A stretch of 43,953 nt of DNA from a virus: UHGV virus genome UHGV-0199997; one strand, given 5' to 3'. The notes below the pieces were generated by a model. That model saw only the letters and a program-made list of their open reading frames with translations, searched no databases and was not told the origin of the DNA. Shown here piece by piece: positions 24,422 to 30,382 of this stretch. The translations under genes were made by a program, and so were the position numbers. Each line of letters begins with the position of its first letter. Positions within the stretch are counted from its first letter, which is position 1.

Positions 24422-24615
24422 TGGTACAGAGGTACGAGGCAAACGCGTGGGGTCTGCCGGAGCCTGAGATGGCTGAGTACGCGTACGGCGATTACGTAGA
24501 ATATGACGCTTATCTGAAACTCGAAGCAAAGTTACGTGAATTCGCTGAACAGGTAATGTACGCACCTTGTTCGAAAGTTACAGAAGAAATGGCCCGCGAG
24601 ATTCTCGGAATATGA
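24421..24615 (+). CDS. hypothetical protein (MVQRY paralog B)
   Basis: Tandem paralog of 24215-24421 (MVQRYEANAWG...YDAYLKLEAK). Confidence 0.5.
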   Translation: MVQRYEANAWGLPEPEMAEYAYGDYVEYDAYLKLEAKLREFAEQVMYAPCSKVTEEMAREILGI

Positions 24616-24752
24616 GCCTCGCAACTGACATCCTGAAACGAAGCGGCCTCGCTCCGCTGTCTCCGAGAGCGAAGACCCGGATACACAAGCGCCGCCGTAA
24701 CGCGCTGTTCCCGGAGATACAAGAACGCCGTAAAGCTATCCGCGCCTGTTGA
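24612..24752 (+). CDS. small basic protein (46 aa)
   Basis: ATGA overlap with the upstream stop; Arg/Lys-rich. Confidence 0.3.
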   Translation: MSLATDILKRSGLAPLSPRAKTRIHKRRRNALFPEIQERRKAIRAC

Positions 24753-24901
24753 TTCCAGAACGGGAAGGCCGTGAATCTTGGTGAGTTTAAAACACAGGAA
24801 CGCGCAGCTATCGCTAATCGACTATTTAACTACTGGAAATCGCTGGGGTACGAGGATATTCCGACGAAACCTCAGAGACGACAATACATCTGGAGACACA
24901 A

Positions 24902-25342
24902 ATGACGACTATCGCGTTCGACGGAAAGACAATGGCATGTGACACGCGTGTTGTGTGCGGGAGTAACTGTTACAACACAGACACAAAGATATACGAGAAT
25001 GATTTTGCTGTTATCGGGGTGGCTGGCGATGCCGGAGTCGGAACTATGCTTATCGATTGTCCGTATATCCTCCAGGCCAGACACTATGACTTCGATTTCG
25101 AAGCCCTGGTGTTCGTGAAAGATACAGAAAAAGTGTATAAAGTCGCGTTTTATAAATCGTGGGATTGTGCACTAAGTTCGGTTATCCCTGTTGCCGATAG
25201 CTTTGCCGCCGTTGGTTCCGGTTCTCCTTATGCACTGGCGGCCATGGAATGTGGATATTCAGCACATGGAGGTGTGGCCGTTGCCTCGAAGTTCGACACT
25301 AACACGGGCGGCAAGATTATTACCAAACAACTATTAGGATAA
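24902..25342 (+). CDS. HslV-like Ntn-hydrolase (proteasome beta-type peptidase homolog)
   Basis: N-terminal MTTIAFDG (Thr2 nucleophile after Met removal), ...FAVIGVAGD..., and GSGSPYALAAME matching the HslV GSGGxYAxAA region. Confidence 0.6.
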   Translation: MTTIAFDGKTMACDTRVVCGSNCYNTDTKIYENDFAVIGVAGDAGVGTMLIDCPYILQARHYDFDFEALVFVKDTEKVYKVAFYKSWDCALSSVIPVADSFAAVGSGSPYALAAMECGYSAHGGVAVASKFDTNTGGKIITKQLLG

Positions 25343-25401: not shown

Positions 25402-25710
25402 TTGGATAAATTTACCGAAACAGTGACAGGCTGGCTTCTCGCTGCCGCACTCGCCGGAGGGGTCATCGGACTACGACAACATAAGTCCGTTATTTCTGGC
25501 CCTATCGACGGCTTCTGCTTTATCGCAACCGGCTTCACTTGCGCCGTATTTGGTGCGCCTCTTGCCGCCCAATGGTTTGGCATTACCGGGGAGCGTGAAA
25601 TCGCTGGCCTCGGATTTATCATCGCTGTCCTCTGGATGCCCATCTATTCCCGCCTTTCTGGCATCGTCGCCGGAGAATACATCGCACGTCGAGGAGGCTC
25701 GGATGAATGA
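25402..25710 (+). CDS. putative holin
   Basis: 102 aa with 2-3 predicted TM helices and a charged C-terminus; RBS GGAGG before TTG 25402; just upstream of the endolysin. Confidence 0.5.
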   Translation: MDKFTETVTGWLLAAALAGGVIGLRQHKSVISGPIDGFCFIATGFTCAVFGAPLAAQWFGITGEREIAGLGFIIAVLWMPIYSRLSGIVAGEYIARRGGSDE

Positions 25711-25975
25711 GCTATTCTGGTTCGGCGGTATGCTGGCAATCGGTGGCGCATCGCTGTTTAATGTGTATCATCCCAGCGTTGACGACGGGTTATTTGGTCG
25801 GGTGCTCTATATCCTGACCGCTATTGTCTGCGCCGCCGGGTGTATCCACCTGTTACAGGGCAGCATGTCACCTACGTTGCCCGAGACGTTAATCACATTA
25901 GTCGCGCTGCGTCAGATTCGTCAGGCGTGGCTGTCGTACGGAGGACATAAGCGTGTCTCGAAATATTTCAGATAA
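25703..25975 (+). CDS. small membrane protein (second holin/antiholin-like)
   Basis: RBS GAGGAGG before ATG 25703; two hydrophobic helices; overlaps the holin 3' end and the endolysin 5' end. Confidence 0.45.
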   Translation: MNELFWFGGMLAIGGASLFNVYHPSVDDGLFGRVLYILTAIVCAAGCIHLLQGSMSPTLPETLITLVALRQIRQAWLSYGGHKRVSKYFR

Positions 25976-26456
25976 TGGATTGCAGTTCAAAAAAGCGTGG
26001 GAAAAGTTTCGCGGAACTGCGTACAAAGCAACAAAGAACGAAAAATACTGGACTATAGGCTGGGGCCATACCGGGCCTGATGTGTACGAAGGGCAGAAGA
26101 TTACCGAAGGCCAGGGACTTCTGTTACTGAACCGTGATATGCAGTGGGCGGTGAAAGCAGTCGATGACGTCGCACATCCCTCCCTGACCCAAGCCCAGTT
26201 TGATGCCGTCGTTGACCTGGTGTTCAACGCAGGGACTGGCGTGATTGCGGCTACGACAGGGACGGGTAAGGCACTACAGCGGGGAGACATCCCTACCCTA
26301 CGGCACAAGATGAGTCAGTTCATTAACCAGCGCAACCCTAAGACCGGTAAACTTGAACCTGTTCTGGGCCTGCGCCGTCGCGTAGCGGGTCGTCTGGCGC
26401 TGTTCGACGGTAAACCGTGGCGGGAGGCAGAGGCTATCGGGAGGGCTGTTAAATGA
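25953..26456 (+). CDS. endolysin, phage lysozyme family (GH24-like)
   Basis: RBS GGAGGA before GTG 25953; the N-terminal E...TIGWGHTG block and the overall pattern match P22 gp19 / T4 lysozyme-type muramidases. Confidence 0.75.
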   Translation: MSRNISDNGLQFKKAWEKFRGTAYKATKNEKYWTIGWGHTGPDVYEGQKITEGQGLLLLNRDMQWAVKAVDDVAHPSLTQAQFDAVVDLVFNAGTGVIAATTGTGKALQRGDIPTLRHKMSQFINQRNPKTGKLEPVLGLRRRVAGRLALFDGKPWREAEAIGRAVK

Positions 26457-28611: not shown

Positions 28612-29121
28612 ATGAAGCTGAAACTTAAGCAGCCATCGCCTGAGGTGGTGCAAGCTGCACATGAAGAAGCTGTTAGCGCAAACCGTCGCCGTAAACGCCC
28701 GCGCGGTAAACAGAGCCTTTATCAATCATCCCGTAATTCCGCCGCGTTGTGGGACCCGGACTATTGCGACGAACTGATTCGTTTCTTCGACCGCACGTCG
28801 TGGGAGCTTGTGCCTACGTCTAAGGGTGGCGAACGCCCCCTTATTCAGGATAAACCGCCATCACTGGCCCGCTTCGCCTTGCACATCGGCGTCACTATTC
28901 CGATTATTAAACTATGGCTGCGCGAGATTCCCGCATTTGCAGAAGCCTATGAAACGGCGCAGGCACTGGAAGAGGCGTACTTCACTGAGACAGGGGCCGC
29001 GGGCATCTCCGCTACGTTCGCTGCCGCTAAGTTGGGCCTGAATAAAACAGTTGTTGCTGAAGAAGTACGCGACGAGCCAATCAGCGAAGTAACAATTAAG
29101 GTGGTGTCCGGTGAACGTTAA
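28612..29121 (+). CDS. terminase small subunit
   Basis: Basic N-terminus with an HTH-like segment; directly upstream of and overlapping the large terminase gene; RBS AAGGGGA before ATG 28612. Confidence 0.6.
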   Translation: MKLKLKQPSPEVVQAAHEEAVSANRRRKRPRGKQSLYQSSRNSAALWDPDYCDELIRFFDRTSWELVPTSKGGERPLIQDKPPSLARFALHIGVTIPIIKLWLREIPAFAEAYETAQALEEAYFTETGAAGISATFAAAKLGLNKTVVAEEVRDEPISEVTIKVVSGER

Positions 29122-30382
29122 TATCACGGCGACGGAGCCACAAGGCGCATTTCTAGGTATGCATTGCAAGTTCCCGGCATTCGTGGCAGGCTTCGGCACC
29201 GGGAAGTCAGAGGTTATGTGCAACTCTGCACTACTCGACAGCATGGAAGGTGGTAGCGATTCTATCATCGCCATGTACGAGCCTACCTATGACCTGGTGC
29301 GCCTCATCCTTGCACCGCGTATGGAAGAAAAGCTGACGGACTGGGGTATCCGATACAAATACAACAAGTCTGACAACATAATCTATACGTCATCCAGTCA
29401 ATTTGGGGATTTTGTTCTGCGTACATTGGATAATCCAGCACGAATCGTAGGTTACGAGTCCTTTCGCGCAAAAATCGACGAGTTGGACACCCTTAACATG
29501 GAACATGCTGAGCACGCGTGGAACAAAGTCATCGCCCGTAACCGCCAGTTGCCGCGGACATATAAACCTATTACGCCCAAACCGGCTAATACCGTTTCCG
29601 TGTTCACCACGCCGGAAGGATTCCGTTTCGTACATGACCGCTGGGTTGTTAAAAAGAATCCTGGCTACGAGATGATTCAGGCATCCACCCTGTCGAACCC
29701 GTTCCTGCCGGAAGATTATGTTCAGTCATTGCGCGATACCTACCCGGGTCAGTTGATTGACGCCTACATTAACGGCGAGTTTGTAAACCTCACGGCTGGG
29801 ACGGTCTACTACGCTTACGACCGCAGGAAAAATAGTAGTCGTGAAACAATCAAGCCTGGCGAGACTCTGTATATTGGGCAGGACTTTAACGTAGGCCACA
29901 TGGCGAGCACAGTTTACGTGCAACGCGGGAAGGTGTGGCACGCTGTCGCCGAGTTGGTTGATATGTTCGATACCCCCGATGTAGTGCGGGCTATAACCGA
30001 GCGATGGAAAAGTAAGGGTCACTATATCGTTATGTACCCGGACGCCAGCGGCAAAAACCGTAAAAGCAACAACGCCAGTACCTCAGACATCGCCCAGCTA
30101 CAGCAGGCCGGTTTCGAAGTACGCGCTAAATCGACAAACCCACCGGTTAAAGACCGCGTATCTGCGATGAATAAGGCGCTTGAATCTGGTATGGTCATGA
30201 TTAACGAACAGGCTTGCCCAGTTACGGCGCGATGCCTGGAGCAGCAAGCCTACGACAAGAACGGCGAACCGGATAAATCCGGGGGCGTGGACCACCAGAA
30301 TGATGGAACCACATACCCTATCGCGTACGAAATGCCGATTCGCAAACCAGTTATTAACGTCCCGGTGACTTTCGCACTTTAA
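29111..30382 (+). CDS. terminase large subunit
   Basis: Walker A-like AGFGTGKS, Walker B-like IDELD, C-terminal RNase H-like nuclease region (GQDFN...D). Confidence 0.9.
   Translation: MNVNITATEPQGAFLGMHCKFPAFVAGFGTGKSEVMCNSALLDSMEGGSDSIIAMYEPTYDLVRLILAPRMEEKLTDWGIRYKYNKSDNIIYTSSSQFGDFVLRTLDNPARIVGYESFRAKIDELDTLNMEHAEHAWNKVIARNRQLPRTYKPITPKPANTVSVFTTPEGFRFVHDRWVVKKNPGYEMIQASTLSNPFLPEDYVQSLRDTYPGQLIDAYINGEFVNLTAGTVYYAYDRRKNSSRETIKPGETLYIGQDFNVGHMASTVYVQRGKVWHAVAELVDMFDTPDVVRAITERWKSKGHYIVMYPDASGKNRKSNNASTSDIAQLQQAGFEVRAKSTNPPVKDRVSAMNKALESGMVMINEQACPVTARCLEQQAYDKNGEPDKSGGVDHQNDGTTYPIAYEMPIRKPVINVPVTFAL

Follow-up and report, generated by a model that had tools for sequence, protein, structure and literature searches.

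Proteasome-like proteins encoded by phages have already been described as a family of their own, the PPH family of Fuchs et al. 2021 (PMC8665760). Its members comprise about 140 residues, are distributed over Caudovirales and prophages, and were placed in group I together with HslV and BPH; they lack H2, the C-terminal S12/H5 and a propeptide, and keep the catalytic triad and the oxyanion hole (PMC8665760). Among the relatives in this group, BPH gave no HslU pull-down, is HslU-independent, and is inert on standard peptide substrates and on casein, yet binds epoxomicin (PMC5777263). Our literature searches retrieved neither experiments on phage proteasome homologs nor PPH biochemistry or genetics, and the interest of the protein analyzed here rests on viral proteasome homologues having no known function. 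To the published picture we add negative evidence on an HslU partner and the observation that adjacency to the lysis cassette is lineage-specific.

The window, by which we mean the whole stretch of 43,953 nucleotides analyzed (UHGV virus genome UHGV-0199997), was identified by megablast and tblastn as a Kagunavirus-like E. coli siphophage of the Guernseyvirinae. The closest protein to the product of interest is that of Escherichia phage vB_EcoS-phiEc3 (97% identity), annotated as 'putative ATP-dependent protease'. The searches returned 302 database homologues. A homologue is carried by about 300 phage records, for the most part those of Salmonella Jerseyviruses, with about 60% identity. Many of these records bear the label 'peptidase HslV family', 'HslV family peptidase' or 'N-terminal nucleophile hydrolase domain containing protein', and near-identical proteins carry such annotation in Kagunavirus and Jerseyvirus records. 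The novelty implied by a preliminary description of this DNA is thus not sustained, the family having been published as PPH (PMC8665760) and its orthologues annotated in GenBank records: public annotation and the literature already cover the gene, the family to which it is assigned and its position, and no new kind of element is involved.

The gene was present in all six Kagunavirus-type loci that were opened, including those of phiEc3, fEg-Eco19, CR01, G AB-2017 and NTEC3. A tblastn search with the peptidase listed 30 'Escherichia phage' records and a 3-kb DNA query listed 103; these record counts are no sign of gene loss in most Kagunaviruses, because every locus opened has the gene. The large terminase (window 29111-30382) shares 99.5% identity with its counterpart in Raoultella phage RP180, but the peptidase shares only 84% with that of RP180 and 97% with that of phiEc3. 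The phage of the window is a mosaic pieced together from known Kagunavirus-like genomes.

Table 1. Predicted features of the peptidase gene and its downstream neighbors in the window
Feature	Coordinates	Strand	Remarks
Shine-Dalgarno motif GGAG	24892..24895	+	6 nt before the peptidase ATG; read from the sequence
Predicted CDS, PPH-family proteasome-like Ntn (Thr1) peptidase homolog	24902..25342	+	146 aa; stop codon included
Thr2 codon (predicted nucleophile Thr1 once Met is removed)	24905..24907	+	Thr 131/134, Ser 3/134; aligned to beta5 Thr1
Asp14 codon (Asp17 equivalent)	24941..24943	+	Asp 131/134; aligned to beta5 AADSR
Lys29 codon (Lys33 equivalent)	24986..24988	+	Lys 134/134; also invariant in a second family alignment
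G39-V-A-G42 codons (Gly47 oxyanion-hole segment; HslV G45…G48)	25016..25027	+	
Residues 48-65, truncated H1 and acidic loop in place of HslV H2 and pore turn	25043..25096	+	AF2 model, alignment
G105-S106-G107 codons (Ser129 glycine loop)	25214..25222	+	Gly 134/134, Ser 123/134, Gly 134/134
D132-T-N-T135-G136 codons (proteasome Asp166…Ser169-Gly170)	25295..25309	+	aligned to beta5 RDAYSGG
First downstream holin (class II-like), context only	25402..25710	+	phrog_2359, 5e-29
Second downstream holin (class I-like), context only	25703..25975	+	phrog_2508, 1e-33
Endolysin, context only	25953..26456	+	phrog_7, 1.5e-36

The sequence bears out the 146-aa ORF of the preliminary description (24902-25342), together with its MTTIAFDG start and its glycine loop: the product begins MTTIAFDGKTMACDTRVV, and residues 105-114 read GSGSPYALAA. 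The ATG of the peptidase shares bases with the stop codon TGA of the preceding ORF in an ATGA arrangement, and it is the first start codon past the preceding in-frame stop; an N-terminal propeptide is therefore impossible. Pairwise dN/dS between the peptidase gene and five Kagunavirus orthologues ranged from 0.02 to 0.18. These values place the gene under strong purifying selection, and together with the 302 database homologues and the 1529 matching clusters described below they show that it is real and not a chance ORF. The upstream ORF (window 24612-24905, + strand) corresponds to phrog_9632, a 97-aa protein conserved in phiEc3, CR01 and fEg-Eco19. The window copy is broken by an in-frame TGA at 24750-24752, where phiEc3, CR01 and fEg-Eco19 all have GGA (Gly), and its 3' fragment keeps the ATGA overlap with the peptidase ATG. 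Possible explanations of this TGA are a nonsense mutation, a sequencing error and read-through.

As a single sequence the protein scored 21.9 bits against Pfam PF00227 (Proteasome), just short of the gathering score of 22.4, and it matched phrog_1040, 'peptidase HslV family', with E=1.5e-34. A HMMER search against 1.84 billion cluster representatives retrieved 1529 clusters (50% identity) at E<=1e-3, and the best 150 of the 1529 were nearly all 135-155 aa long and aligned from residue 1. The start 'MT' was found in 136 of the 146 top-ranked diverse relatives, and 'MTT' in 119 of them. When a profile built from 127 family sequences was compared with the PDB, it matched proteasome beta (6e-12), HslV (2e-11) and BPH (8e-11), and the register with beta5 held through Thr1, Asp17, Lys33, the GSG loop and Asp166-x-x-Ser169-Gly170.

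An AF2 monomer prediction from the same 127-sequence alignment (pLDDT 94.3, pTM 0.89) exhibits a beta sandwich with three helices only, at residues 46-51 (a stub of H1), 108-116 (H3) and 121-131 (H4). The model has no H2 and no helix between residues 52 and 107, and nothing follows the last strand at 139-143. Foldseek against the PDB returned 113 matches at E<=1e-3, headed by Thiobacillus BPH (5ovt/5ovs; E 3.5e-7, TMq 0.73-0.75) and followed by active beta5 (E about 5e-7) and HslV; the best 50 of the 113 were all proteasome beta, HslV or BPH. Among predicted viral structures (BFVD), dozens of phage relatives were found, some of them named 'Proteasome subunit beta' or 'Ntn hydrolase domain'. 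Profiles and model together identify the phage protein as a proteasome-like Ntn hydrolase with the alpha-beta-beta-alpha sandwich shared by proteasome beta, HslV and BPH.

Conservation was counted after 134 diverse relatives had been aligned with E. coli HslV; the HslV sequence used is off from the real one by one residue and the start codon, a discrepancy that leaves the alignment unaffected. The catalytic positions listed in Table 1 are accompanied by an oxyanion-hole segment in which G39, corresponding to the backbone oxyanion hole at Gly47, is Gly in 99/134 and Ala in 23/134, and G42, equivalent to HslV G48, is Gly in 133/134. Toward the C-terminus, D132 (Asp166) is retained in 128/134, T135 (Ser169) is Thr or Ser in 120/134, and G136 (Gly170) in 124/134. 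A separate sample was drawn from IMG/VR by means of a degenerate DNA motif for A[IV]GSGxx[YF]AxxAM, which gave 120 loci; a family member was found in 118 of them, and profile positions 1-2 were the start codon and Thr in 100 of the 104 complete genes. By virtue of this steady Thr right after the initiator Met, the family behaves as an N-terminal-nucleophile enzyme. The active-site set (equivalents of Thr1, Asp17, Lys33, Gly47, Ser129, Asp166 and Ser169) is complete and conserved. The earlier reading of a Thr1 Ntn-type protein with a catalytic triad agrees with this alignment and with the beta5 register, and the profile searches and the predicted structure both point to the presence of Ntn homology and of the triad, the absence of which the preliminary description had named as evidence against itself.

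The apical layer of HslV, made up of H1 and H2, is largely gone from the phage protein. In the alignment, no residues of the phage protein pair with HslV positions 61-83 (precursor numbering), and the loss of H1/H2 might block the formation of a closed chamber. The segment that replaces these helices is also the most variable part of the protein: among 118 close orthologues, 81-98% identical, residues 51-60 exhibit a mean entropy of 1.35 bits vs 0.06-0.8 elsewhere, and the variation is concentrated in residues 48-61 (window 25043-25084). This stretch occurs as discrete allele types, such as TMLIDCPYILQAR, ILLVKDDGILVPK and DILVGDRGILVPK, and its hypervariability could mean that the loop is relaxed, that recombination has made it a mosaic, or that an interaction surface is evolving there.

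Such variability is what would be expected of a binding surface, and it is one of the observations consistent with a protein that is no peptidase in vivo and acts instead as a Thr1-dependent transpeptidase/ligase or amidase, in the manner of connectase, or as a silent binder or decoy. The superfamily does include a ligase, connectase (PMC8665760), and an intact active site is no guarantee of general peptidase activity, given that BPH has the same active site and is inert on standard substrates (PMC5777263). Against a silent decoy, however, seven catalytic and oxyanion positions are near-totally conserved across relatives only 28-40% identical to the query. The fold and the best structural matches are those of proteolytic members, and connectase has a different architecture in which the H1/H2 pair is entirely absent (PMC8665760). 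Taken together, a non-peptidase function appears quite unlikely.

The preliminary description had called the protein HslV-like, a label that stands at the level of the proteasome/HslV superfamily and falls for HslV proper. Membership in HslV was rejected on the equivalog models TIGR03692 and NF003964, against which the protein reached 14.4 bits vs a cut-off of 157.75 and 13.5 vs 137; H2 and most of H1 are missing, and the missing HslU interface was a further ground for rejection. The C-terminus of HslU is reportedly accommodated in HslV by F54, F57, Q114, A79 and K80 (PMC6429459), and R86/R89/K90 form a basic pore cluster (PMC5777263). The first three of the pocket residues correspond to T48, I51 and P96 of the phage protein, which are unconserved in the family (134-relative alignment), A79 and K80 fall in the stretch deleted from it, and R86/R89/K90 align to a poorly conserved, mostly acidic family loop. 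With these positions substituted or deleted, the earlier proposal that the protein may use host HslU loses its footing.

We accordingly examined that proposal in its broader form, in which host HslU or ClpX-type unfoldases drive the phage protein, replacing or supplementing HslV, and ATP-dependent proteolysis is retargeted. It draws on the superfamily kinship revealed by the profile match, on the MTTI N-terminus, which is shared with E. coli HslV (176 aa) apart from the GTG start codon of the latter, and on database relatives named 'ATP-dependent protease HslVU peptidase subunit', names that are transferred annotation. The host carries its own HslU, and Proteobacteria, which are the known hosts inspected, generally have HslUV. 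On the opposite side, the HslV equivalog models are far from matched, the HslU-pocket and basic pore residues are lost, and in the model H2 is deleted and H1 is down to six residues. H1 and H2 are the helices that form the HslU-facing surface in the HslVU structure. Actinobacteria generally lack HslU. The published PPH table includes Actinobacteria as well (PMC8665760). We therefore give the use of a host unfoldase in the HslU manner only a slim chance.

The search for a partner encoded by the phages themselves was equally negative. In agreement with the earlier remark that no HslU-like ATPase is adjacent, phmmer at E<=10 retrieved no HslU-like ORF from the six-frame translation of the window or from the 120 viral loci of relatives, and no AAA+ unfoldase was among the 25 most frequent Pfam families per scan of the 100-300-aa neighbors in 57 lineages. 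The protein may still engage a host unfoldase, such as HslU or ClpX, in a non-canonical way.

The preliminary description had also placed the gene next to lysis genes, and phrog_2359, phrog_2508 and phrog_7 genes do lie downstream. The peptidase gene is located directly 5' of the holin-holin-endolysin cassette in the window and in 6/6 other Guernseyvirinae loci inspected. A consensus scan detected no strong promoter or terminator match in the 59 nt that separate the gene from the first holin, and the only match nearby is a weak promoter-like one (9/12) inside the 3' end of the peptidase gene. This invariant site and the gap without a strong signal fit a possible role of the peptidase in Guernseyvirinae lysis, in which it would process or degrade the holin/antiholin, the endolysin or a host lysis-timing factor. 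Also in line with such a role, phages of the phi92-like, Phapecoctavirus and Aeromonas Plateaulakevirus groups share a recurrent lysozyme-PhoH-x-PPH-like module, Ruegeria phage RpAliso has a cell-wall hydrolase 1.8 kb upstream, and one further locus (L004) has a Peptidase_M15_4 gene 0.5 kb upstream.

The wider sample, however, weighs against a lysis role. Only about 7/57 IMG/VR lineage representatives have a lysis gene (lysozyme, M15 peptidase or holin) no more than 3 kb away, roughly what chance would give in genomes of some 45 kb, and on this count a family-wide lysis linkage was rejected. The contexts in other lineages are of a different kind: in Xylella phage Cota the gene lies between DNA ligase and RNA polymerase, in a Ruegeria phage it follows RNA ligase and polynucleotide kinase, in a Vibrio phage it follows a primase, and further copies are associated with a head-tail connector or a portal. 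The phage protein itself carries neither a signal nor a transmembrane segment, and it needs a free N-terminus. We consider participation in lysis improbable, and the lysis adjacency is specific to the Guernseyvirinae lineage, at best. The idea that these are spanin-less phages in which the peptidase stands in for spanins in outer-membrane disruption was likewise rejected, because a Guernseyvirinae-like phage is reported to carry spanins at another place in its genome (PMC6763661).

The recurrent module mentioned above has the order lysozyme, PhoH-like, one or more hypothetical genes, and PPH-like, and was observed in large myophages, namely phi92-like phages, Phapecoctavirus and Klebsiella phage 05F01, and in Aeromonas Plateaulakevirus phages (L006, 1663-4187; L010, 2055-4546; L012, 2182-4654; L011, 1-4885; L003, 100-5519). 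PhoH is annotated in L006, L010, L012 and L011, and only hypothetical genes lie between the lysozyme and the homologue in L003. The PPH-like protein of this module is C-terminally extended, at 183-294 aa, and these extended homologues may be what Fuchs et al. call the 'RPC' group.

Across the 57 loci no conserved neighbor or partner gene was found, no neighbor family being present in more than 7 of them. With its variable context and no common neighbor, the gene behaves as a portable accessory gene. The most frequent neighbor, a DnaT_2-family protein of about 168 aa, abuts it in 6-7 of the 57 lineages (e.g., L022, 10183-11128; L110, 1442-2238). This neighbor is a putative head-tail connector-like protein. 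The genes so neighbored lie near portal and terminase, in a structural module and not among early genes. With respect to defense systems, PADLOC gave no match.

Together, these observations are best explained by a propeptide-free Thr1 peptidase that has no dedicated or HslU-type unfoldase, probably self-assembles, and serves as a portable accessory enzyme, a reading that we hold to be probable with moderate confidence. The gene would be transcribed with the block of small genes running into the lysis cassette. Host methionine aminopeptidase would then remove Met1 and expose Thr1 as the nucleophile. Thr is a permitted second residue for Met removal, and E. coli HslV matures likewise. By analogy with BPH, the protein would probably self-assemble into rings through the retained H3/H4 face, and the assembled enzyme would carry out Thr1-dependent peptide-bond hydrolysis without the aid of a dedicated or HslU-type unfoldase. 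Its substrates would be host or phage proteins or peptides, and it would not be a fixed part of lysis; the variation of its genomic context across phage lineages suggests such a portable accessory enzyme.

A more specific version of this reading would be that the Guernseyvirinae recruited a Thr1 peptidase that needs no partner and acts on a specific target, for instance an adjacent lysis-timing component or a host defense or stress factor, and that the hypervariable loop at residues 48-61 is its evolving recognition surface. We regard this proposal as speculative and rather unlikely; if true, it would give a viral proteasome-family enzyme a function for the first time. For work on this question, a Kagunavirus that infects E. 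coli is a convenient system.

Compared with the known members of the superfamily, the beta5-type 20S proteasome subunit aligns with the phage profile in register over the full length, including D166/S169/G170. The 20S beta subunits differ from the phage protein, which is about 55-60 residues shorter and has no propeptide, alpha-ring partners, H2 or S12/H5. HslV shares the fold, the catalytic residues, the MTTI N-terminus and the GSGxxYAxAA motif, whereas it has Cys where the phage protein has Asp (the Asp166 position). It is also 30 residues longer, the phage protein being, as had been noted before, 146 vs 176 aa and without most of the H1/H2 apical layer, and no hslU lies beside the phage gene. 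HslV forms a dodecamer from two hexameric rings.

BPH (PDB 5ovs/5ovt) is the best structural match of the phage protein and resembles it in having no propeptide, no partner ATPase, no conserved HslU-interface residues and a pore region that is acidic and not basic (PMC5777263). It differs in its chains of 183-185 residues, in the presence of H2 and a long pore loop, in its location on a bacterial chromosome and in its heptameric double rings; the phage protein, with 146 aa vs about 185-200, no H2 and a phage genome as its carrier, lies outside BPH. The closest likeness is to PPH: the window protein has 146 aa, comes from a tailed phage, is devoid of propeptide, H2 and S12/H5, and keeps the triad and the oxyanion Gly. 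No difference from PPH was found in this comparison, which was made by the published features of the family (cluster representative WP_042125023.1). By these features the phage protein belongs to PPH/PHROG 1040, already described and annotated, and what goes beyond the published description of that family is its Guernseyvirinae-specific site before the lysis cassette and its hypervariable apical loop.
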